Part shown: piece after piece, positions 44,244 to 57,129 of the stretch
Layout of the letters: each line of letters begins with the position of its first letter
Position numbering within the stretch: position 1 is the stretch's first letter
Source of the DNA: an uncultured Nitrososphaeria archaeon
Lineage (GTDB): Archaea; Thermoproteota; Nitrososphaeria_A; Caldarchaeales; Wolframiiraptoraceae
Assembly: GCA_964655015.1 (NCBI GenBank)
Contig: CAZZKR010000002.1
Location: forward strand, 11,211-75,210
Direction of reading: 5' to 3'
DNA length: 64,000 bases
Made by a program: the position numbers and the translations under genes
Notes under the pieces: model-generated
Seen by the model: only the letters and a program-made list of their open reading frames with translations
Database searches by the model: none
What the model was told of the DNA's origin: nothing

Positions 44244-44339
44244 TGGCGCCGCGGGTCGGATTCGAACCGACGACCAACGGGTTAACAGCTTCAGCCCCTC
44301 TATAGGGTCCGCTGCTCTACCGAGCTGAGCTACCGCGGC
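44244..44339 (-). tRNA. tRNA-Asn (anticodon GTT), CCA encoded, with a 19-nt intron at a non-canonical position in the anticodon stem
   Basis: The hand fold of the reverse complement gives acceptor GCCGCGG/CCGCGGC and D-arm GCTC-AGCTCGGTA-GAGC. After GCGG a 19-nt insert (ACCCTATAGAGGGGCTGAA) follows. Removing it yields stem GCGGG/CCCGT with loop CTGTTAA. T-arm GTCGG-TTCGAAT-CCGAC, discriminator G, then CCA. Confidence 0.7.
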
Positions 44340-49236: not shown

Positions 49237-49308
49237 GGGCCGGTAGCGTAGCGGAAGCGCGCCCGCCTCGCACGCGGGAGGTCGCGGGTTCGAGTCCCGC
49301 CCGGTCCA
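49237..49308 (+). tRNA. tRNA-Ala (anticodon CGC), the integration target
   Basis: Acceptor GGGCCGG/CCGGTCC with G3:U70. Anticodon arm CCCGC-CTCGCAC-GCGGG, T-arm GCGGG-TTCGAGT-CCCGC, discriminator A. Confidence 0.9.
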
Positions 49309-49310
49309 CT
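49273..49310 (+). repeat. att copy 1 (tRNA-proximal): 38-bp perfect direct repeat covering the 3' half of tRNA-Ala(CGC)
   Basis: CGCGGGAGGTCGCGGGTTCGAGTCCCGCCCGGTCCACT is identical to 53678-53715. The identity extends to 44 bp (49267-49310 versus 53672-53715) with one mismatch. Confidence 0.9.
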
Positions 49311-50259
49311 AAATCGTTCTTTTATTGCTTCTGGAGGCTTTCTAGGGTATGACACACGTAAGGCATATACTCAGCAGCTAAATGTTAGAGTATACTCTAA
49401 CGGTTTGGGAGCGGGCGTTAGAGTATACTCAAACTGTTCAGACATAGACTGGCCCTATGTCGAGGAGGCCATCTACGCGAATTATAATCGCAAATGGGCT
49501 AGGAGATGCCTGGCATTGATGAGGCGCTACGGTCATATTCTCTACTCATTCAATGCCTCGGAGCTAATGGTCCTGAAGCCCTCCAAGCGCGTTGAGGTCA
49601 TGAAAGCCTTAAGCATGCTGGCCAGAATGTTGGGGCTTAGGGATAGATGGAAGGCTATAAGGGAGGCTTATGGGCTCAAATGGTCCTTGGAGATAGATAA
49701 CGTGCCGCCCATCCTAACATCCCAGGCATATTCATCCCTGCTGTCCAAGGCTAGGAGGATGCTCCACTCATCGGGCAATTATAAGGATGCCTTGGAGTTC
49801 ATAGCATTATCGGGCTTAAGGGTTGGAGAGGCATTGGAGGTCATGAAGCTCTACAGTAAAGATGGTGAGAATTATCTTAACAAAGAGCTGATGCTCTTGG
49901 AACACTTCAGGTATCCTGAGATCTTCATGAGGAGGAGTAAGAAAGCATACATAACGGTTCTGGATAGCTACATGCTAAACCTTCTAGACCACGCTAAGCC
50001 CGTAACATATGATGCCCTGAGATCCAGCATTAGGAGAAGGCTTGGGGGAGGACATTGCCCAAGCATATTCAGGAAGATATGGGCGACATTCATGAGACGG
50101 CATGGATTAGAGCCCGAGGCCATAGACCTGCTGCAGGGCAGGACACCCAAGAGCATATTCCTGAAACACTACTACAGGCCCGACCTCAAGCATCTAATCG
50201 AGGATGTCAGGGAGGGCCTCAAGTATCTGAGAGCGGAGCTTGGGATCAATAAATGCTAG
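49309..50259 (+). CDS. Tyrosine recombinase, C-terminal catalytic fragment Int(C) of a partitioned integrase
   Basis: Catalytic-domain motifs GLRVGEALEV (Arg I), IFRKIWATFM, LQGRTPKS and FLKHYYRP (Tyr). The frame is open from within the att repeat to the stop at 50259. The first conventional in-frame start is TTG at 49405. Confidence 0.8.
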   Translation, partial: LNRSFIASGGFLGYDTRKAYTQQLNVRVYSNGLGAGVRVYSNCSDIDWPYVEEAIYANYNRKWARRCLALMRRYGHILYSFNASELMVLKPSKRVEVMKALSMLARMLGLRDRWKAIREAYGLKWSLEIDNVPPILTSQAYSSLLSKARRMLHSSGNYKDALEFIALSGLRVGEALEVMKLYSKDGENYLNKELMLLEHFRYPEIFMRRSKKAYITVLDSYMLNLLDHAKPVTYDALRSSIRRRLGGGHCPSIFRKIWATFMRRHGLEPEAIDLLQGRTPKSIFLKHYYRPDLKHLIEDVREGLKYLRAELGINKC

Positions 50260-50509
50260 GTAGATGCCTACGCCTAGCCGCGAGCATATCGAGGTAGAAT
50301 GCTAGAACCTCTTCGGCGATAAGTGGATTAGCCTCCACATCCACCTCTTCAACCACACCATCATCAAGCCTGTAGAGGAGGAGCTTACCGCGCTCCAAGC
50401 CCAAGGCATATAACTCAAGCTGGAGCTGCAGGAATCCCCAGAGCAGGAGCTTCTCCCTCTCGCTATATCTCCTGAGGACCTTGAGCTCATGGATCATGCC
50501 ATCCCTCAC
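50246..50509 (-). CDS. Hypothetical protein (element cargo)
   Basis: 87-aa ORF with a GTG start, convergent with Int(C) and overlapping it. No motif recognised. Confidence 0.35.
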   Translation of the reverse strand: MRDGMIHELKVLRRYSEREKLLLWGFLQLQLELYALGLERGKLLLYRLDDGVVEEVDVEANPLIAEEVLAFYLDMLAARRRHLPSIY

Positions 50510-50643
50510 AATAGGGGCTTAAAGACTTGGGGGGAGGCGAGTCATCATAGCTCTCGAGACCTCCAAGGACCACGCTATACTTTTGATCTTCATCAAGGCC
50601 AAGCCTATGATTCCCCTAAACGCTAACCTTGCTCACAGCGCTC

Positions 50644-51732
50644 CTAGCCCTCAGCATGACGCCCCTTAACCTCCTTAACTAACTCCCTAAGCATTTCGAC
50701 GTCTAAGCCCCTAATCGTTTTGGCTATTTCGGACTTGCAATAAAGTACGGTTAATAGTTGGTCCTTAGGATAAGAGAGCAAGGTCTCAAGCTCCCTAACA
50801 ACATATCCCAAGGCAATATCAGCATTCTCAGAACCACACTTCCTAAACACCTTGATTAGATCATGGAAAGCCTCATGCCCATCCCTGCATACGGTCATGA
50901 ACCTTATATCTTCTCTAGGTCTCCTCTCACCGCATATATCGCATGTCCTAGTTTCTTGGGCTTCTCCAGATGCTTGAGGCCTAGAGGAAGCTCCTCCAGA
51001 GCAACCCTTATATTCCTCGGAGGTTGTTAGCATGCTAACAGCCTTAGAATCATACAAGCCTTCCTCCTCCAAAGCCCCGAACTCTACAAGAAATTTCTCA
51101 TACTCCCTCTCTATAACCTCAGGGCCCCTCTTCATGATCTCCTTAACCAGACTTGAGGCCTCCCTCCTACCGAGACCATGCGTGGTGATTATCTTAGAGG
51201 CTAAGACTTGATCCTTAGAATCCCTGAGCTTTGAGACCTCATATAGCGTGGAGAAATCCTTGATCTTTGGGGCTAGAATGTTCTTAGCCTCATCACATAT
51301 GTGACCTATTGATAACATCATGGAGACCCATGAACGATCCCTGTTAAGCCGTTTACCTATCTCCACAACGCTCATCCCCAGCTCTTTATGCATGTAGGCC
51401 ACTTTCCTGGCTATGTCGAATGGATGCATGTCGGATCTCTTGAGGTTCTCCTCCAAGCTTATGGCCAATGCCTCCTCATCGTTGCACTCTACAATTTTAG
51501 CCTCCACGATTTTGCGATCAAGACACTTTAACGCGTTAAACCTCATGTAGCCCGAGATTAGCTCATAGCCCCCATCATCCAGCATCCTAACGATTATGGG
51601 TTCTATCTGGATGCCCCTCCGGATGCTCTCCGCGATCTCATCCACCTCATGCTTCTCGACCACTATCCTCTCGGCCCATTTCGGAATCCTTATGCTATCG
51701 ACATCCAGCTCCCTAACCTCTATGACCTTCAT
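50644..51732 (-). CDS. ParB/Srx-fold N-terminal domain protein with an HTH and a C-terminal Cys/His region
   Basis: IEPIIVRMLDDGGYELISGYMRFNALK occupies the ParB-box position, followed by the HTH MSVVEIGKRLNRDRSWVSMML. The C-terminal region reads CDICGE...CRDGHEAFH. It is the largest ORF of the element (362 aa). Confidence 0.65.
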   Translation of the reverse strand: MKVIEVRELDVDSIRIPKWAERIVVEKHEVDEIAESIRRGIQIEPIIVRMLDDGGYELISGYMRFNALKCLDRKIVEAKIVECNDEEALAISLEENLKRSDMHPFDIARKVAYMHKELGMSVVEIGKRLNRDRSWVSMMLSIGHICDEAKNILAPKIKDFSTLYEVSKLRDSKDQVLASKIITTHGLGRREASSLVKEIMKRGPEVIEREYEKFLVEFGALEEEGLYDSKAVSMLTTSEEYKGCSGGASSRPQASGEAQETRTCDICGERRPREDIRFMTVCRDGHEAFHDLIKVFRKCGSENADIALGYVVRELETLLSYPKDQLLTVLYCKSEIAKTIRGLDVEMLRELVKEVKGRHAEG

Positions 51733-51738
51733 GAATCA

Positions 51739-52080
51739 TCACCCCTTAACAACCTCGACCCTATACTGCCTAGAGCCCCTAGAGCCCTCAACAACTACCT
51801 TGAGCCTCAAGCCCCTTAAGCCGCCATGCTCATCCGCGATATACTTGAGCTGGCCTAGGAGGCTATTCTTACCCACCTCATCCCTCCAGGGTATAAGCCA
51901 CGTAAACTTATCGCCGCTATCCGGGAGCCTTATGATCAGTGGAAGCCTAAGGCCATACCTGGTTGATATGGGCCCATTAGGTTCCTCAACGACCTCTATC
52001 ACGTTAATGCCCGGTGCCGGATGGAACAATGGAGGCCTATCATCCTGCTTCTTGATCCTGACGATCTTTCTCCAGGCCAT
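51739..52080 (-). CDS. Hypothetical protein (element cargo)
   Basis: 113-aa ORF, tightly packed between the 75-aa wHTH gene and the ParB-like gene. No motif recognised. Confidence 0.4.
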   Translation of the reverse strand: MAWRKIVRIKKQDDRPPLFHPAPGINVIEVVEEPNGPISTRYGLRLPLIIRLPDSGDKFTWLIPWRDEVGKNSLLGQLKYIADEHGGLRGLRLKVVVEGSRGSRQYRVEVVKG

Positions 52081-52307
52081 TAATTCTCACCCTTAACGAA
52101 TACGTAGCTCTTTGTCGTGTCTATCATCCTGAGTTTCCCTTTGGCCACTAACTCTAACAGCAGAGCTCTAGCAGAATGCCATGAGATGCCCAGATGATAT
52201 GCCACGTAATCTATGCTCACGGGCTTACCTGCACTTTCAACTATCTCCATGGTTTTGTCCATCAGCTTTAACCTCTCAGCCTTAATCCTCTCCAACATGC
52301 CTCTCAC
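52080..52307 (-). CDS. Small wHTH DNA-binding protein (element cargo)
   Basis: 75 aa. VSIDYVAYHLGISWHSARALLLELVAKGKLRMI fits a winged-helix pattern. Its stop overlaps the next start by 1 nt. Confidence 0.5.
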   Translation of the reverse strand: MRGMLERIKAERLKLMDKTMEIVESAGKPVSIDYVAYHLGISWHSARALLLELVAKGKLRMIDTTKSYVFVKGEN

Positions 52308-52355
52308 TTCTCGAAAGACATATCAACATCGAGCCCTCATATTGATCAGGTCACA

Positions 52356-52787
52356 ATGCGCAAGGGGATCAGCCTACTAAACCCCGACAAAGAAGTGGAA
52401 TTAAGGATGGAGACTGAGAGGGCTGAGAGCATAGATGATGCAATCCTAGCAGCCCTCAGGATCCATGTAACCCCCCTCACCTTTAACGATCTGCTAAAAC
52501 TGATGCCCGAGCGCTTCAGGCATGGGGAAAAGCTGAGCAGGGCATTGAAGCGTCTTATCAGGGATGGCATGGCCCAGGAGGTGATCGTTATCATGATGGA
52601 TGAGGTGGTCAAGGCATACGCATTAATGACCGATACGCGGATACTAGTCAGTATACCCGTAATGGATTTGAGGAAAGAGGGCTATAAGGTGCTGATAGGC
52701 TTCGCATATGAAGGGCGGAAAGAGCCCTACGATTTATACGAAGTTAAAGCAGACTACATCCTCATACACATCGATCGAGGTGATTAG
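52356..52787 (+). CDS. Hypothetical protein with an N-terminal wHTH-like region (element cargo)
   Basis: 143 aa. IDDAILAALRIHVTPLTFNDLLKLMPE...LSRALKRLIRDGMAQEV. Divergent from the 75-aa gene. Confidence 0.45.
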   Translation: MRKGISLLNPDKEVELRMETERAESIDDAILAALRIHVTPLTFNDLLKLMPERFRHGEKLSRALKRLIRDGMAQEVIVIMMDEVVKAYALMTDTRILVSIPVMDLRKEGYKVLIGFAYEGRKEPYDLYEVKADYILIHIDRGD

Positions 52788-52792
52788 AAGAC

Positions 52793-53053
52793 ATGAGGAG
52801 GTTGATTATCGGATTGATTATATTCATGGCAGTTATGTGGGCTTTGGTAAATTTCTCTTATGTGAGACAGGTTATAGAAGCATTGGATGAAGCTCATAAA
52901 GCATTAGATGAGGGAGACTATGAAGAATATGAGCGCTGGCACTCGCTTGTCCATAACAGGATTTCACATATGGTCATATTCAACATAATCTACTTTCCCT
53001 TAATTACCTTACTAATTTATGCCTATCGCAAATCACAGGTAAGAGGGAAATAA
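52793..53053 (+). CDS. Small two-TM membrane protein (element cargo)
   Basis: 86 aa with hydrophobic helices at both ends (LIIGLIIFMAVMWALV, VIFNIIYFPLITLLIYA). Confidence 0.4.
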   Translation: MRRLIIGLIIFMAVMWALVNFSYVRQVIEALDEAHKALDEGDYEEYERWHSLVHNRISHMVIFNIIYFPLITLLIYAYRKSQVRGK

Positions 53054-53109
53054 AGGATACTGCATCCATAACATGATAGGCCTTGAACTTCCGCGGCTTG
53101 GCTCGAATA

Positions 53110-53125
53110 GGATAGTCGACTATCC
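53110..53125. repeat. Perfect 16-bp palindrome GGATAGTCGACTATCC nested within 10-bp inverted arms
   Basis: Read directly from the sequence. The outer arms are CTTGAACTTC (53082-53091) and GAAGTTCAAG (53149-53158). Lies in the convergent gap of the element. Confidence 0.8.
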
Positions 53126-53133
53126 GCATTGCA

Positions 53134-53451
53134 TCACATCGCATCGCAGAAGTTCAAGCCCCCTACTAGCCTTTTAGAGACATCCTTCCTGACCATATAT
53201 GCTGAGGGTTTTACTTCTTTATGTCTCGGGAGCTCTATTATGCATGTCCTGACGGTCTTATAGCCCTCTATGGTCTTCACCCTATGGACCACCTGTATCC
53301 TAGGCCTGAAGCATCGATGCTTTGGATCATGAATCCATTCCAGGTATGGCCCATAGCCCTGGAGCCCGCATTTAGGACATCTTATAACCCTAGGCCTGCT
53401 GTTTAGCATGCTAAACGCCTTCCCCGTAATACCCTCGGGCATTCTGGACAA
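53134..53451 (-). CDS. Small zinc-ribbon-like protein (element cargo)
   Basis: 105 aa. IRCPKCG plus later His/Cys residues (HDPKHRC). Confidence 0.4.
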   Translation of the reverse strand: MSRMPEGITGKAFSMLNSRPRVIRCPKCGLQGYGPYLEWIHDPKHRCFRPRIQVVHRVKTIEGYKTVRTCIIELPRHKEVKPSAYMVRKDVSKRLVGGLNFCDAM

Positions 53452-53494
53452 TAAGCCTTTAACAATCTAACGAGGCTCGATCAGGTGATCAGGC

Positions 53495-53715
53495 ATGCCC
53501 ATACTAACGCGTAGGCTTAGAGAGTTCCTAGAACATCCGGAGGCATTCAGCCCAAGCTATAGGAGATACTTGAGACATGTTCTGAAGCATAGAGTCGGCA
53601 TGGCCTATGAGGAGCTCGAATACATCAATGAGAAAGTCCCAGAGCTGCTGGAGGAAATAGAATCCAAGAGACTCGCGCGCGGGAGGTCGCGGGTTCGAGT
53701 CCCGCCCGGTCCACT
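53495..53715 (+). CDS. Integrase N-terminal fragment Int(N), reading into att copy 2
   Basis: ATG at 53495 preceded by the GGTGATC SD. The reading frame across the att repeat is the same frame as Int(C) at the other end ((49405-49273) and (53678-53495) are both multiples of 3). As integrated, the ORF runs on to a stop at 53758. Confidence 0.75.
53678..53715 (+). repeat. att copy 2 (distal)
   Basis: Identical 38 bp to 49273-49310. Lacks the 5' half of the tRNA. Confidence 0.9.
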
Positions 53716-53773
53716 CCTAATTAAGTGCGAAACCTTTTTTATAGGGCAGCGTCTCTAACTCTCTTGAGTTGGA

Positions 53774-53914
53774 ATGGGTAAGAGAGGAGTTAGCAAATAC
53801 TTAGTTTATCTTCAAGATGAACAGGTTGGTAGATGGCTTAAGAATCTTGCTCGGGGAAGTCCTATAACTGCTGAGGTTGCTTTGAGAAGACTTAGTAAAC
53901 TATGTGAGCTTTTT
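53774..53914 (+). pseudogene. N-terminal remnant of a second, unrelated archaeal integrase
   Basis: VGRWLKNLARGSPITAEVALRRLSKLCELF resembles, from memory, the N-terminal ...NLARGS.ITA.VYLRRL..FCE motif of euryarchaeal integrated-element integrases. No catalytic domain follows. Confidence 0.35.
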
Positions 53915-54009
53915 AGGATCGGAAATCTAACTATTCTCGGCTTAAATCTCGCATATCTTCCGTTAAAGCTACTGAAAGTATTTGCTAGAGTTTCAACAGA
54001 CCTTCTAGC

Positions 54010-54532
54010 CTCTCTATAATCTTCTGAAAAAGCAACAAGTCTAACGAGAACACTAAAGCACGGAAGGGAAAGCTTTCTCAATATTTCCTGAGTATAAAGT
54101 GCTTCTAGCATCTTTTTATCGATTTCTTCAATATCTGGTTCTGGTAATAATGGGATGGGGCATATTACTTATGTGAAAGTGTTCAATTTCTTTTTACTAC
54201 ACCACCAAAAATTTTCCTAAAAAGTAAAGATTGACCGAAGTTTGACGATAAATAAGCATATAGATATCCAATAGGAACATTTTCTCTGAATATCACCCTT
54301 AATTAATGTTCAGAAACGCCAATATAACTCTTCCAACACTTCCTGATCTTGTTACAAGTATCCAATTATTTTGAACTAAATACTCTTTACCCAAATTTTT
54401 TACTCTTTTCCCTGTAAATACGAAATTGAGTATGTCTTTAGATGATATAAAGGGGACTCCATTTTTCGTGTAAGTGCGCTTAAATCTAGATGGATAGAAA
54501 ATCTTATTACAAAATTCGTAAATGTATCGCAT
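54010..54532 (-). pseudogene. Degraded type I restriction-modification specificity (HsdS)-like gene
   Basis: Three frame segments on the minus strand. They read ...GVPFISSKDI...ILVTRSGSVGRV (54532-54299), then VIFRENVPIGYLYAYLSSNFGQSLLFRKIFGG (54296-54183), then IPLLPEPDIEEIDKKM. Stops and frameshifts separate them. The order matches a single HsdS target-recognition domain plus conserved helix. The 3' limit is approximate. Confidence 0.45.
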
Positions 54533-54580
54533 AATTTAAATTAGTGAAAACTAAATAAGAAACTAAGGAGGAAAAAGGAA

Positions 54581-55354
54581 ATGCCGCCCAAAATCGAGGA
54601 GGTAGAAGTTAGTGAAAAGGAACTTGAAAATCTTTTAGTGGAGAACCCCGACGCTATTGAAAGAGGTATGAAAATTTTAGGACGTCAAATACAAACTGAT
54701 AACGGACCTTTAGACATTTTGGCTGTTGATGAGGATGGAGTATTGACTTTAATTGAGTTGAAGAATGAGGTTGATGACGGACAATTGGACCAAGGATTAC
54801 GTTATTATGATTGGGTTAGAACTAACATTCAATGGATCTCTCGGAACTTTAAAGAGGTTGATGCTGAGCAAGAGCCAAGGTTGATTCTCATTGCTCCAGC
54901 CTTCTCTGATAATCTACGAAGGATTGCAAAATACGTAAACGTGAACCTGGATTTAATAGAGTATCATGTTATTCAACTTCCCGATGGAAAAAGAGGGGTT
55001 CTTTGTCATCGAATAGAAACTGGAGGCCCTCCTGAACCACCAGTTGTTCCTACAAGAGAGGGTAACTTAAAACGTATCGAGAATGAAAAAGTAAGACAAC
55101 TTTGTGCAGAATGTCTTAAGGAATTGGAGAATAAGGGGATTGAAATAAGACCGATACAAAACTATTGGTTTTCTATATGGTACAAAGGTAAGCGGTTTAT
55201 GTATCTTGGTTGTAAAAAGAAGTTTTTTGTTTGTGAGATACAAAAACCAGATGGGTCATGGACTAAAAGAATAAGGATCACGATAAAAGAGGAGTGGGAA
55301 AGGATGTTTAATAACGAAGTTATGCCAACTATAAGTAAAATCGAGTCTGAGTAA
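54581..55354 (+). CDS. PD-(D/E)xK nuclease, NucS/DUF91-like core at the N-terminus, uncharacterised C-terminal domain
   Basis: GPLDILAVDEDGVLTLIELK...QGLRYYDW matches the RecB-like D...D/E-x-K...Q-x-x-x-Y pattern of NucS-type nucleases. Strong SD (AAGGAGG) about 10 nt upstream. 257 aa and intact. Confidence 0.6.
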   Translation: MPPKIEEVEVSEKELENLLVENPDAIERGMKILGRQIQTDNGPLDILAVDEDGVLTLIELKNEVDDGQLDQGLRYYDWVRTNIQWISRNFKEVDAEQEPRLILIAPAFSDNLRRIAKYVNVNLDLIEYHVIQLPDGKRGVLCHRIETGGPPEPPVVPTREGNLKRIENEKVRQLCAECLKELENKGIEIRPIQNYWFSIWYKGKRFMYLGCKKKFFVCEIQKPDGSWTKRIRITIKEEWERMFNNEVMPTISKIESE

Positions 55355-55411
55355 GAGTATTTTGATGAGCGAATTATTTAAGGAATTTAACGGATACATT
55401 AAAAACTACTA

Positions 55412-55972
55412 GACTTTGTTTAGAAACTTACCCAAGTTACCGACAATAACATAATCACAATGTGGACATTTCCCATTCCTTGCTTTCAAAGATTCATAAG
55501 ATATGGGCTTCTTGCATCTAGGAGATTTTATGTTTTTCTTTTAGCCATGCTTCTTCCTAATTTTCAGCCAAATCGAGCACCATAAAATTATCCCTATAGC
55601 ACTTAAAACAATTCTCATATCTCCTATTCCAATAATAATATTTCTGAGCGTTACTTCTTCAGAAGATAATTCATTTATGATCTCCCAAGTTTCACTGGTA
55701 TAGAGAATTGCCTCCACTGTAAAGTTAATGAGCATGTAAATAAGTAAGGGAAGTAAAGAACCCAGCAAAGCTCTTGTAAATTTTCTCTTTATTGAGTAAA
55801 CCAAAAGAATAAGAAGAGAAGCAAATACCGAGAGTGAGAATAAATTTCCTTGAACAAAATGTAAGATTCTAAAGTTAGCTTTTTCTAGGGAAACAAATAA
55901 AAAACCTGTTAAAATAAAAGCTAGGAATGAAACTCCTATGGCTAAAGCAACTTTTTTAGCTTCTGGTATTTT
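55412..55972 (-). pseudogene. Decayed membrane-protein gene with an in-frame TAA and a zinc-ribbon-like tail
   Basis: The listed 87-aa ORF (55541-55804) is preceded in frame by 56 open codons (55805-55972) that have no ATG/GTG/TTG start. After its TAA it continues in the same frame as KKNIKSPRCKKPISYESLKARNGKCPHCDYVIV, ending at a TAG at 55409-55411. Confidence 0.35.
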
Positions 55973-56268
55973 TCACTTCACTTTAACCTTTTTATGAAAA
56001 ACTATGCTATAACTAAGATTTGTTTTTGAAATATAACTTTAAATTTTTCAAGTAGGACGATATGCTACTATGATACCCACTGTTCAACCCAACGACTTAG
56101 AAAGCTTATCTTTGGGTTGCATGTAGGTTGCTAAGAAATTAATAAAATTGAGTAGTTAAGCCTATGATTGCCTTTTAATACCTTCCGAGGAGCTTTCCCT
56201 GTTTTAATCGGAGCTATCGAGGCGCTTAAGCTCATTGATGATGGAAGAGACCTTCTAGATAGATTCTT

Positions 56269-56899
56269 ATGAGCAACGAAGTGAGGTGGGTTGATTTGAA
56301 CAGAAAAACCGTCATCATGATCATTCTTGCAGCGGCAATCATGGTTAGCGTATTTTACGCTTGGTACTTTCGACTTTATGGTGCTACAGAGACGTTGAAA
56401 GAAGATTTTGAAAACGGGTTCGATGAATGGGTCGCAAATGCGGATGTGCCACTTGACCCCAACAACTCTGGGCACCTCATCGAATGGAGCATAACACATT
56501 CAAACGACGTCGCTAGCTCCGGCCGATACTCATTAAAGTTTTTCATTGACGGACGGCAGGACGATGGAACAATATGGATAGAGAAAAATAGCTGTACAAA
56601 AAGGCACTCAAATACGAGTTAACATCTTCTTTGACTTCTATAGTGACCATGAAAGCCTCGCAAACACTAGAGCTGTCATATGCGCTTATGCTGGCGTACA
56701 GAAAGCCAGAGCTGAGGAACATTTCACCGTAATTGGAAACGCGAACGAAGTTGAGGGCTGGAAAAGATACAGTTACACGACAAACATAGACACTGGTTCC
56801 AGTGAAGAAATATGGGTCGCGCTAGGCATCTCAGTACGCTGGGAAACTCACATGACGTACTACATCGACAATGTTGAAGTGAGAATCCTTTACCTTTAA
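56269..56899 (+). pseudogene. Frameshifted gene for an N-terminally anchored secreted protein (jelly-roll/CBM-like)
   Basis: ORF 56269-56622 ends shortly after an A5 run (56584-56588). The +1 frame from 56588 stays open to the TAA at 56897-56899 and encodes protein-like sequence (IAVQKGTQIRVNIFFDFYSD...WKRYSYTTNIDTG...THMTYYIDNVEVRILYL). Confidence 0.5.
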
Positions 56900-56907
56900 A
56901 TATATCG

Positions 56908-57129
56908 TTGAAGCTTTCTGCTGGAACTGTAACCCTTTTCGCATTCGATGAAGGACAAGGGTTAAGCGAACACACAGCACCATACAATGCTATGGCATTC
57001 GTACTTGAGGGAGATGTAGAAATAACCATCGGTGGAGAAGGCGAAGTGGTGATACTGCCTGTTAACAAGCCCCGTGCGGTGATAGTAAAAAAGAAATTTA
57101 AAATACTCCTAATAATGATTAGGTCATAA
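56908..57129 (+). CDS. Cupin-domain protein, apparently N-terminally truncated
   Basis: GTVTLFAFDEGQGLSEHTAPYNAMAFVLEGDVEITIGG is the cupin motif-1 region. An in-frame stop lies 33 nt upstream of the TTG start. Motif 2 reads PRA where PHA is usual. Confidence 0.5.
   Translation: MKLSAGTVTLFAFDEGQGLSEHTAPYNAMAFVLEGDVEITIGGEGEVVILPVNKPRAVIVKKKFKILLIMIRS

Follow-up and report, generated by a model that had tools for sequence, protein, structure and literature searches.

An integrated 4.4-kb plasmid-like element of a Caldarchaeales archaeon with an SSV-type integrase gene very probably split by its own integration

Fuselloviruses measure about 15 kb, and the plasmid pSSVi about 5.7 kb. SSV-type ('suicidal') integrases are defined by the Pfam family PF16795, an attP site within the integrase gene and att sites of 40–50 bp (PMC8371274). 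For the integrases of SSV2, pTN3 and pT26-2, site-specific integration and excision without accessory factors have been studied biochemically (PMC7253208). The separated halves of these integrases are inactive, and excision requires intact integrase in trans (PMC8371274, PMC7253208). In Saccharolobus solfataricus, the small integrative plasmid pSSVi carries an SSV-type integrase and spreads with fusellovirus help (PMC8371274). [quoted passage not shown]

The locus described here was found in a 64-kb window (the full stretch of DNA that was analysed; all coordinates are positions in it) from a thermophilic hot-spring archaeon of the Caldarchaeales that is close to 'Ca. Terraquivivens yellowstonensis'. 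Very probably, a plasmid-like element of 4,405 bp is integrated here, and its SSV-type integrase gene was split by that integration. The case is a clean and recent one; the mechanism was known from archaea before and is not new. The target gene, the boundaries and the integrase parts are as follows.

49237–49309, plus strand: complete tRNA-Ala(CGC) gene, restored at the left junction (ARAGORN; Rfam RF00005, 65.5 bits)
49267–49310, plus strand: attL, the 44-bp core; it starts in the anticodon loop and ends 1–2 nt past the tRNA 3' end (repeat search)
49311–53715, plus strand: inserted element, 4,405 bp (empty-site contigs L088–L097 have window position 49310 joined to 53716)
49273–50259, plus strand: Int(C), frame open out of attL; codons 62–389 of the rebuilt gene, with core-binding and catalytic domains
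53484–53489, plus strand: GGTGAT, putative Shine-Dalgarno-like motif, 5 nt before the Int(N) ATG (read from the sequence only)
53495–53758, plus strand: Int(N), codons 1–61 forming a helical N-domain; the ORF crosses attR and stops in host DNA
53672–53715, plus strand: attR, second 44-bp core copy, with G at 53677 where attL has A (repeat search)

An earlier note on this DNA had described a repeat derived from tRNA-Ala(CGC), 38 bp perfect or 44 bp with one mismatch, and ARAGORN, Rfam and a repeat search confirmed it. The two 44-nt copies (49267–49310 and 53672–53715) are spaced by 4405, contain a perfect stretch of 38 nt and differ only in A at 49272 versus G at 53677. A 30-nt repeat core occurred in two exact copies in the window, versus none expected (100 shuffles). 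The second copy of the element (contig L001) shows 3 substitutions over 4,585 nt relative to the window copy. Its repeats are identical at 44/44 positions and lack the mismatch of the window copy; the att core is therefore 44 bp. GC content was 0.484 in the element versus 0.445 in the host flanks.

A search for the empty tRNA site had been proposed as a check. Exactly the predicted site (49310 joined to 53716) was recovered as an unbroken alignment at 99.6–99.9% in 10 other metagenome contigs, with a tRNA-Ala(CGC) identical to positions 49237–49309. The insertion boundaries were thus confirmed independently. In the samples of two of these contigs, the occupied allele is present as well (ERZ27289264, occupied L001 and empty L091; ERZ27289263, occupied L002 and empty L096). 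The earlier note had named presence of the 4.4 kb in an unrelated context without the repeat as evidence against its reading. This did not occur: relatives without the insert have the precise empty site, not the 4.4 kb in a different setting.

The ORF at 53495, said to follow a Shine-Dalgarno sequence and to enter the distal repeat, does enter it, is preceded by the SD-like motif GGTGAT and as integrated has a length of 87 aa. The annotatable ORF of Int(C) begins at TTG 49405, but its frame is already open at 49273 and continues to a stop at 50259. Joining 53495–53677 to 49273–50259 rebuilt, as the earlier note had claimed, a single 389-codon ORF on a 4,405-bp circle, regardless of where within the repeat the crossover was placed. 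A lack of N-terminal homology had been named as a further refuting observation. Int(N) alone matched the N-terminus of an intact 383-aa homolog (P0223; BLASTP E 5e-08), and a profile of N-fragments matched a profile of intact N-termini with an hhalign probability of 92.6% (E 4e-07). The rebuilt protein is collinear with P0223 (residues 3–373 versus 1–359, E 5e-32). Fused, undivided integrase copies were found in L006, L018 and L021.

Because any two ORFs join in phase with a one-in-three chance, the phase match might be a coincidence, with an unrelated small gene at 53495 and a conventional integrase using a separate att site. This reading was rejected and is given next to no credence. Homology links the N-fragment to the N-terminal part of intact family members, and in every complete relative it lies at the end opposite Int(C). 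Moreover, 12/12 N-fragment clusters cross a tRNA-like peptide and diverge just after it.

The ORF leaving the tRNA-proximal repeat had been taken for a tyrosine recombinase. It matched Pfam PF16795 (Phage_integr_3) with 32.6 bits (gathering cut-off 27) over residues 223–361, and PF16795 was precomputed on nearly all homologs. The catalytic residues R244 (49819), K284 (49939), R328 (50071), R351 (50140) and Y361 (50170) are all intact, invariant across a 22-sequence family alignment and aligned with the SSV1 motifs FRK...QGR...HY. SSV1 integrase catalytic domains were the sole matches in a PDB sequence search, and fusellovirus integrases the sole matches in a search of 50,697 virus records, with about 31% identity over the catalytic core. 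A structure search of the 389-aa protein had also been proposed. In the AlphaFold model (pLDDT 78), residues 116–389 are folded. Foldseek gave its best E-value to archaeal XerA (9.5e-04), followed by the SSV1 integrase catalytic domain (TM 0.57–0.62, probability 1.0), which had the best target coverage and the highest identity among the matches. The assignment to SSV-type (partitioning) integration was upheld by these Pfam, PDB sequence, fold and virus-record searches. It further agrees with an attP within the ORF, a tRNA-derived att and the homology of the N-terminal part. The element thus shares with SSV1 and SSV2 the catalytic family, an attP inside the integrase ORF, division into Int(N) and Int(C) upon integration and an att of about 44 bp matching the 3' part of a tRNA gene, whereas their hosts are Sulfolobales. 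MAGs of Nitrososphaeraceae and Nitrosocosmicus contain the integrase family in abundance.

On the circle, the integrase would be encoded by one 389-codon ORF, in which the 44-bp attP makes up codons 62–74 and copies the host tRNA-Ala(CGC) between its anticodon loop and its 3' end. The integrase, predicted to be active, would have recombined attP with the tRNA gene (attB), which would have restored an intact tRNA at attL. The same recombination would have cut the integrase gene, with Int(N) left at the far right end, where it runs into attR, and Int(C) at the left end, where its frame emerges from the tRNA. Judging from the published work on SSV2, pTN3 and pT26-2, the split would lock the element in, gene disruption acting as the directionality switch. 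By the same work, re-mobilisation would depend on an episomal copy, or a related incoming one, that supplies intact integrase.

For the search for a circular form, a circle-junction pattern was validated on in-silico circles. The junction proposed for checking was not recovered, with 0 matches in IMG/VR and JGI metagenome contigs. Likewise, the exact 389-aa protein was absent from a collection of 15 billion proteins, none of the close homologs recovered (at least 57% identity) was full length, and the window contains no second SSV-type (helper) integrase. These results, with the published inactivity of split halves (PMC8371274, PMC7253208), would suit a fossil insertion that integrated once and is now immobile, with decaying pseudogenes as halves and old lineage sorting behind the polymorphism. 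This is nevertheless unlikely. Every invariant catalytic residue is intact, and both integrase halves are under strong purifying selection, with the lowest dN/dS in the element (0.07–0.15; Int(N) 0.065–0.113, Int(C) 0.106–0.154). As had been noted, both repeats and both fragments look undegraded. Against a fossil also stand the merely 3 substitutions between two copies and the occupied and empty alleles sharing samples in backgrounds otherwise 99.6–99.9% identical. Finally, diverged relatives (4.4–4.6 kb, 75–80% nucleotide identity, same gene order) occupy tRNA-Ala(CGC), tRNA-Ala(TGC) and tRNA-Thr(CGT), and three different tRNAs require repeated mobility. In one relative (L004), both att copies match the tRNA variant of its own host.

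The earlier note had called the insertion possibly still excisable. This holds only with a helper copy, because published split integrases cannot self-excise. Self-excision would require expression of both Int(N) and Int(C) while the element is integrated, and their assembly into a working integrase. Int(N) indeed retains its own start codon and the SD-like motif, and an in-frame ATG lies near the start of the integrase fragment in two relatives (P0002, L004). The break falls into a predicted disordered linker between folded parts, where split proteins can reassemble, and both halves are under strong purifying selection. Regular episomal phases explain this selection equally well, however, and no junction was seen in IMG/VR or JGI contigs. 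SSV2 Int(N) and Int(C) showed no interaction in solution, and truncated integrases were inactive (PMC8371274). Self-excision is accordingly considered unlikely, slightly more so than a fossil.

As cargo between the integrase halves, the element encodes a ParB-family and a small wHTH protein, together with four small proteins of unassigned function.

50246–50509, minus strand: ORF of 87 aa without family match; the slot that it fills, between Int(C) and the ParB gene, is variable
50644–51732, minus strand: ParB/Spo0J-family protein, 362 aa, ParB_N and HTH (Pfam, TIGR00180, PDB)
51739–52080, minus strand: conserved 113-aa ORF, arranged like an operon with the genes for wHTH and ParB (dN/dS about 0.2)
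52080–52307, minus strand: 75-aa winged-HTH-like protein, weak matches only (Pfam EutK_C/FaeA below cut-off)
52356–52787, plus strand: conserved 143-aa ORF (dN/dS 0.14 versus L004)
52793–53053, plus strand: 86-aa ORF for a putative membrane protein, hydrophobic segments at both termini (dN/dS 0.22 versus L004)
53134–53451, minus strand: 105-aa ORF with a CxxC motif (dN/dS 0.25–0.39)

The ParB-family protein scored 78.9 bits against TIGR00180 (cut-off 58.45), matched Spo0J/Noc/ParB in the PDB (E 4e-15) and has an unassigned, Cys/His-rich C-terminal region of about 160 aa after the HTH. Despite this ParB, the 4.4 kb contain no ParA, that is, no ORF for a P-loop ATPase, and thus no ParABS cassette. 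The wHTH protein weakly matched phrog_31115, 'replication initiation protein' (E 0.004). The 113-aa ORF is kept in four relatives (L003, L004, L098, L099), and the slot between Int(C) and ParB is filled in relatives by ORFs of 181–188 aa. In Pfam, PHROGs and NCBIfam, the four small cargo ORFs had no assignable function, and no element ORF matched a replication protein of the primase-polymerase or helicase type. Episomal upkeep would probably be through the ParB-family and wHTH proteins; autonomous replication is an assumption, because a replication initiator is not recognisable.

A provirus or virus satellite like pSSVi, packaged by its own or a helper capsid, is an improbable but more serious alternative to a plasmid than those above. 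SSV-type integrases are best known from fuselloviruses, four small ORFs (including one that has hydrophobic segments) lack an assignable function, and a missing Rep is expected of a helper-dependent element, for which pSSVi is a published precedent (PMC8371274). Against it, no capsid, packaging or fusellovirus signature protein was found among the element ORFs in Pfam, PHROGs and NCBIfam; 0/6 cargo ORFs matched virus structural families or SSV core families (VP1/VP3 capsid proteins, DnaA-like ATPase). Relatives of the integrase family were absent from IMG/VR viral contigs, and a ParB-family gene is typical of plasmids. To our knowledge, all known archaeal dsDNA viruses are larger than 4.4 kb.

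A plasmid-like element is thus preferred, and compared with fuselloviruses it is, at 4.4 kb and with a ParB-family gene, both smaller and unrelated in cargo, as the earlier note had stated. Its description as much smaller applies to that comparison and not within the family, where the Int halves lie only 1.6–7.7 kb apart in at least 10 of 80 genomic relatives. pSSVi resembles it as a few-kb non-conjugative element with an SSV-type integrase split on tRNA-gene integration, an integrated copy that is largely silent and rare episomes. It differs in phylum and cargo (no sequence relationship detected), and its spread with a helper is documented, whereas helper dependence of the present element would be hypothetical. 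Plasmids of the pRN family and pSSVi-like plasmids have a recognisable replication protein, whereas Pfam, PHROGs and NCBIfam revealed none here. The pTN3 and pT26-2 integrases of Thermococcales are likewise suicidal, belong to PF16795, switch targets among many tRNA genes and require intact integrase in trans for excision (PMC7253208, PMC8371274). They are found in Euryarchaeota, on larger plasmids or virus-like elements, and tandem or chimeric integrations, in contrast to that family, were not seen for the element. The thaumarchaeal NitEve-E3 carries an SSV1-like integrase that is split when it integrates, but it also encodes an MCM helicase and so has a far larger module for replication (Krupovic et al. 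2019, PMC6563490). Thaumarchaeal att sites are mostly short (median 17 bp, versus 44 bp here), and the ParB/wHTH mini-element layout is absent from that study (PMC6563490).

Two DNA motifs lie beside the att core.

49334–49347, plus strand: GAGGCTTTCTAGGG, a DNA motif within linker codons, invariant in five relatives, one of them with a different target tRNA
49384–49434, plus strand: palindrome GTTAGAG-N4-TCWAAC in two copies, 49384–49401 and 49417–49434 (repeat and conservation analysis)

In the AlphaFold model, codons 62–115 form a predicted disordered linker between the helical N-domain and the folded recombinase. From the model and the conservation, the att core, GAGGCTTTCTAGGG and both palindromes would all fall within this linker, whose DNA would be free to act as recombination and binding sites. 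The two palindromes, which flank the att core, are candidate protein-binding sites. Their copies encode a duplicated peptide, VRVYSN, in the linker, and the palindrome stretch has a low dS with a dN/dS above 1.

Features of the insertion in tRNA-Ala(CGC) were called in the window as follows:

49237-49309, tRNA-Ala(CGC), called by ARAGORN and Rfam
49267-49310 and 53672-53715, direct repeat (44 nt, one mismatch, spacing 4405), from the repeat search
49334-49347, invariant GAGGCTTTCTAGGG, inside integrase linker codons
49384-49401 and 49417-49434, two GTTAGAG-N4-TCWAAC palindromes, inside integrase linker codons
50644-51732, minus strand, 362-aa ParB/Spo0J-family protein (TIGR00180 above cut-off; PDB Spo0J/Noc, E 4e-15)
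53495, start of an ORF that enters the distal repeat, preceded by GGTGAT at 53484-53489

The 30-nt core of the repeat was present in exactly two copies in 64 kb, with 0 expected from 100 shuffles. An open frame starts within the tRNA at 49273 and runs to a stop at 50259. Fusion of this piece to the ORF at 53495, anywhere within the repeat, gives a single 389-codon ORF on a 4,405-bp circle. The tRNA, the direct repeat, the SD-bearing ORF, the open frame and the 389-codon join had all been claimed in an earlier note, and each was found in the window. The element is small, with seven or eight ORFs.

The insertion is real and was resolved to the base pair. An empty site was built in silico (...49310 joined to 53716...) and aligned through the junction at 99.6-99.9% in eight contigs (L088-L094, L097). 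In the window, 5,390 bp lie between the end of the ABC-3 permease gene and the NucS-like gene; in these eight contigs the distance is 984 bp. The empty site also aligned in L095 and L096, contigs beginning within or shortly before the tRNA. A single tRNA-Ala(CGC) followed by CCTAATTAAGTGCGAAACC was present in 10/10 empty-site contigs. The proposed comparison with related genomes lacking the insert returned the exact empty tRNA site. The ten contigs originate from Great Boiling Spring samples at 77 C and 85 C (according to JGI record names), three ENA assemblies and two Logan runs. The NucS-like protein 3' of the element (54581-55354) matched many other contigs exactly. A second occupied copy, contig L001, shows 3 substitutions relative to the window element over 4,585 nt, and its repeats are 44/44 identical. 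Occupied and empty alleles were recovered from the same assembly in two cases (L001 and L091 in ERZ27289264; L002 and L096 in ERZ27289263). Nearly all contigs bearing close relatives of the element were 4.5-5.1 kb long, which would be how an assembler renders the occupied branch where occupied and empty alleles form a bubble.

A 3.3-kb low-GC island (53723-57001; GC 0.37 versus 0.445 for the window) lies directly 3' of attR. No flanking repeat was found for it, and it contains the following genes:

54581-55354, NucS_C-like gene
54299-54532, minus strand, fragment of a type I restriction specificity subunit
53774-54019, decaying 81-aa ORF

The island is present in every empty-site contig and is swapped for 12 nt in the occupied L001, and there are therefore three haplotypes: one with both element and island, one with the element alone and one with the island alone. 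The 81-aa ORF just past attR was considered as a remnant of a second integrase and rejected. It had no Pfam, PHROG or NCBIfam match, its homologs were short and unnamed only, and it was frameshifted in most relatives.

Identity of the rebuilt 389-aa protein was assessed by family, structure and virus searches. Residues 223-361 matched Pfam PF16795 ('Archaeal phage integrase') above the gathering cut-off, and PDB sequence matches were solely three SSV1 integrase catalytic-domain entries. R244, K284, R328, R351 and Y361 were among the invariant columns of a 22-sequence family alignment, and all are kept in the window copy. The AlphaFold2 model (mean pLDDT 78) comprised a helical N-domain (1-61), a disordered segment (62-115) and a well-folded part (116-389). 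Every top-ranked Foldseek match in the PDB was a tyrosine recombinase; archaeal XerA had the best E-value (9.5e-04), and the SSV1 catalytic domain had the best target coverage (TM 0.57-0.62, probability 1.0) and the highest identity. The virus records searched, 50,697 in all, gave matches to fusellovirus integrases only, with ~31% identity. No match to PLSDB plasmids and no relatives of the family in IMG/VR were found. PF16795, the SSV1 PDB entries, the fold search and the fusellovirus matches thus agree on the proposed SSV-type membership. In the published definition (PMC8371274), suicidal integrases have PF16795, an attP internal to their own gene, and a tRNA-gene att that spans 40-50 bp; the locus layout fits this definition. 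An integrase of conventional type, with its att outside the gene, was rejected, as attP is inside the integrase ORF.

Lack of N-terminal homology had been set beforehand as the result that would speak against a rebuilt integrase; such homology was found, via an intact relative and by profile comparison. A search with the N-part alone returned 12 clusters, all of short proteins, with residues 1-62 being 66-89% identical to the window. Because 12/12 clusters pass through the tRNA-like peptide GRSRV[RQ][IV]PPGP and diverge after it, all are attR junctions with differing flanking contexts. An exhaustive HMMER search yielded 644 relatives, some of 350-410 aa with the catalytic match beginning near residue 100. 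Among these, P0223 (383 aa) is an intact gene. By BLASTP, the rebuilt protein (3-373) aligned to P0223 (1-359) collinearly, as a single block (E 5e-32), and the N-part alone aligned with E 5e-08. An initial profile comparison with four intact N-termini only was weak (probability 21%). After addition of P0223 and three further family proteins (P0155, P0198, P0159), the N-fragment profile matched the profile of the eight intact N-termini with 92.6% probability (E 4e-07). In P0223 and other long forms a tRNA-like peptide lies between N-domain and catalytic part, and attP is therefore internal there too. Two contigs of ~11.5 kb carry the P0223 gene (L006 1446-2597, L007 2827-3978), with genes for Kelch-repeat, NosD-like and laminin-G-domain proteins as neighbours. 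The tRNA-like peptide inside P0223 reads GDLNPRP, which points to an attP of opposite orientation.

Diverged relatives of the whole element (L003/L004, L098 and L099; 75-80% nucleotide identity) have a gene order identical to the window element: Int(C), variable ORF, ParB, 113-aa ORF, wHTH, ~150-aa ORF, ~85-aa membrane ORF, ~105-aa ORF, Int(N). They are targeted to an intron-bearing tRNA-Ala(CGC) (L003/L004), tRNA-Ala(TGC) (L098) and tRNA-Thr(CGT) (L099). In L004, both att copies bear the own host's sequence variant. The tRNA-Ala(CGC) targets in L003 (421-512), L004 (131-222) and L005 (43-118) carry a ~20-nt insert past the D-arm, a non-canonical intron position, and because of this insert ARAGORN called tRNA-Gly(GCC) in L003 and L004. 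The slot between Int(C) and ParB (window 50260-50643, L004 1180-1725, L098 7856-8422) contains an 87-aa ORF in the window versus unrelated 181-188-aa ORFs in relatives, and appears to be a site of cargo exchange, with synteny in the rest of the element.

Selection was estimated by the Nei-Gojobori method for the window versus L004 and versus L098. dN/dS was 0.065 and 0.113, respectively, for Int(N), 0.106 and 0.154 for Int(C), and 0.14-0.25 and 0.19-0.39 for the other ORFs where measurable. Int(N) and Int(C) are not decaying pseudogenes, and the integrase gene must have been intact long enough for selection to act. In the 31 codons past att, dN/dS exceeded 1, with a dS of just 0.12-0.21 versus 0.6-0.9 elsewhere. 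GAGGCTTTCTAGGG and the palindromes are kept even in L099, despite its different tRNA target. Att core and motifs together occupy codons 62-115, matching exactly the disordered segment predicted in the AlphaFold2 model. This linker stretch would be constrained as DNA, by recombination and putative binding sites, and only weakly at the protein level; GAGGCTTTCTAGGG and the palindromes are candidate arm or regulatory binding sites within coding sequence. The predicted location of the att core and its conserved flanking motifs in a disordered linker offers a concrete, testable answer to how attP co-evolves with new tRNA targets.

For detection of the circular form, a degenerate junction pattern was used, TAGAATCYMARAGACTCGC-N(55-80)-GAGGCTTTCTAGGG, which matches circles built in silico from the window element and from L004 but not the window as integrated. 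It gave 0 matches in the two collections searched, IMG/VR and JGI metagenome contigs; this negative result is not decisive, as the element occurs in ENA and Logan samples. Exact look-up of the 389-aa protein in a protein collection found none, and no second SSV-type integrase was found in the 64-kb window. Separated halves of suicidal integrases are reported to be inactive, and excision to require an intact integrase in trans (PMC8371274, PMC7253208). The insertion had been considered recent, undegraded and possibly still excisable. The first part was supported, with selection on both halves and a near-identical copy in L001. Since the halves are reported inactive, the window has no second integrase, and neither a circle nor an exact intact protein was found, the element would still be excisable only if a helper copy is present.

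Among the element ORFs, no ParA, recognisable Rep, capsid or packaging protein was found with Pfam, PHROG and NCBIfam, and orf113 and orf143 had no match to PDB sequences. A ParABS cassette was rejected, as ParB is present with no ParA in the element. A fusellovirus provirus was likewise rejected, given that these searches found no capsid or packaging protein and that the integrase family lacks IMG/VR relatives. The C-terminal half of the ParB-family protein (residues ~200-362) had no family match and holds a Cys/His cluster, CDICGERRPREDIRFMTVCRDGHEAFH; this region could be a zinc-binding domain acting in replication or site recognition. It is conceivable, if rather unlikely, that the 4.4-4.6-kb elements form a family of minimal integrative replicons, not described before, in thermophilic Caldarchaeales and in Nitrososphaeria related to them. 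These would replicate without a known initiator type, perhaps via the ParB-family protein with its Cys/His-rich C-terminal half, the wHTH protein or a helper virus, and the integrase attP and flanking putative protein-binding sites would lie in a stretch encoding only disordered linker. If true, this would be a dual-use coding arrangement, and would explain how the recombination site tracks new tRNA targets within the gene.

The mechanism itself is already known, self-splitting integration being a documented archaeal speciality. NitEve-E3 of Thaumarchaeota has an SSV1-like split integrase, and cryptic integrated elements of Thaumarchaeota range down to 2.6 kb (PMC6563490). An SSV-type integrase is also carried by pSSVi, a small integrative plasmid (PMC8371274). 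As these precede it, the element is another case of a known type. No description of the ParB-carrying mini-element family was found in the literature cited for suicidal integrases and thaumarchaeal elements. Well-documented cases of the suicidal type are hereby extended to Caldarchaeales. The locus is a natural test case: the same hot-spring populations provide the occupied site, its exact empty counterpart and a third haplotype, the element is tiny, and its diverged relatives have switched among three tRNA targets. It provides a compact system for how elements with a self-destroying gene persist and exit, and how an attP located in coding sequence evolves together with new tRNA targets.

The integrase family was shown to be frequent among Nitrososphaeria and Bathyarchaeia MAGs. 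With each species represented by one genome, a scan gave 115 confirmed loci (closest 47% identical) in Nitrososphaeraceae, Nitrosocosmicus, Nitrosopumilales, Bathyarchaeia and Calditenuaceae. With an N-domain HMM, fused intact genes were detected at 2/80 kept loci, and the intact P0223 locus (L006) was classified likewise. At ~10/80 loci, Int(N) followed Int(C) on the same strand at a distance of 1.6-7.7 kb. At ~5/80 the N-domain was 0.5-0.75 kb upstream, and these are probably long-linker intact genes; at 61/80 no N-domain was detected with this HMM. Int(C) was immediately preceded by a complete tRNA at 6/80 loci, in a test blind to reverse-oriented att sites and intact genes. Some Nitrososphaeraceae genomes are multi-copy for the family: L031, L042 and L050 lie within ~55 kb on one contig of MFD04212.bin.2.239, and many contigs of CRAIB_MAG96 and of Nitrosocosmicus MAGs carry it, with at least 9 contigs in a single MAG. 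In soil ammonia oxidisers, this pattern suggests that the elements have hotspots or spread in bursts.

Flanking proteins of the window share clusters of at least 90% identity with MAGs labelled 'Candidatus Terraquivivens yellowstonensis' and 'Thaumarchaeota archaeon'; together with exact protein matches, these clusters indicate a host close to the former. A 96-nt tRNA at 44244-44339 (minus strand) was called tRNA-Tyr with anticodon ATA by ARAGORN and scored 52.9 bits with the Rfam tRNA model; its length and odd anticodon suggest an intron-bearing, mis-parsed tRNA.
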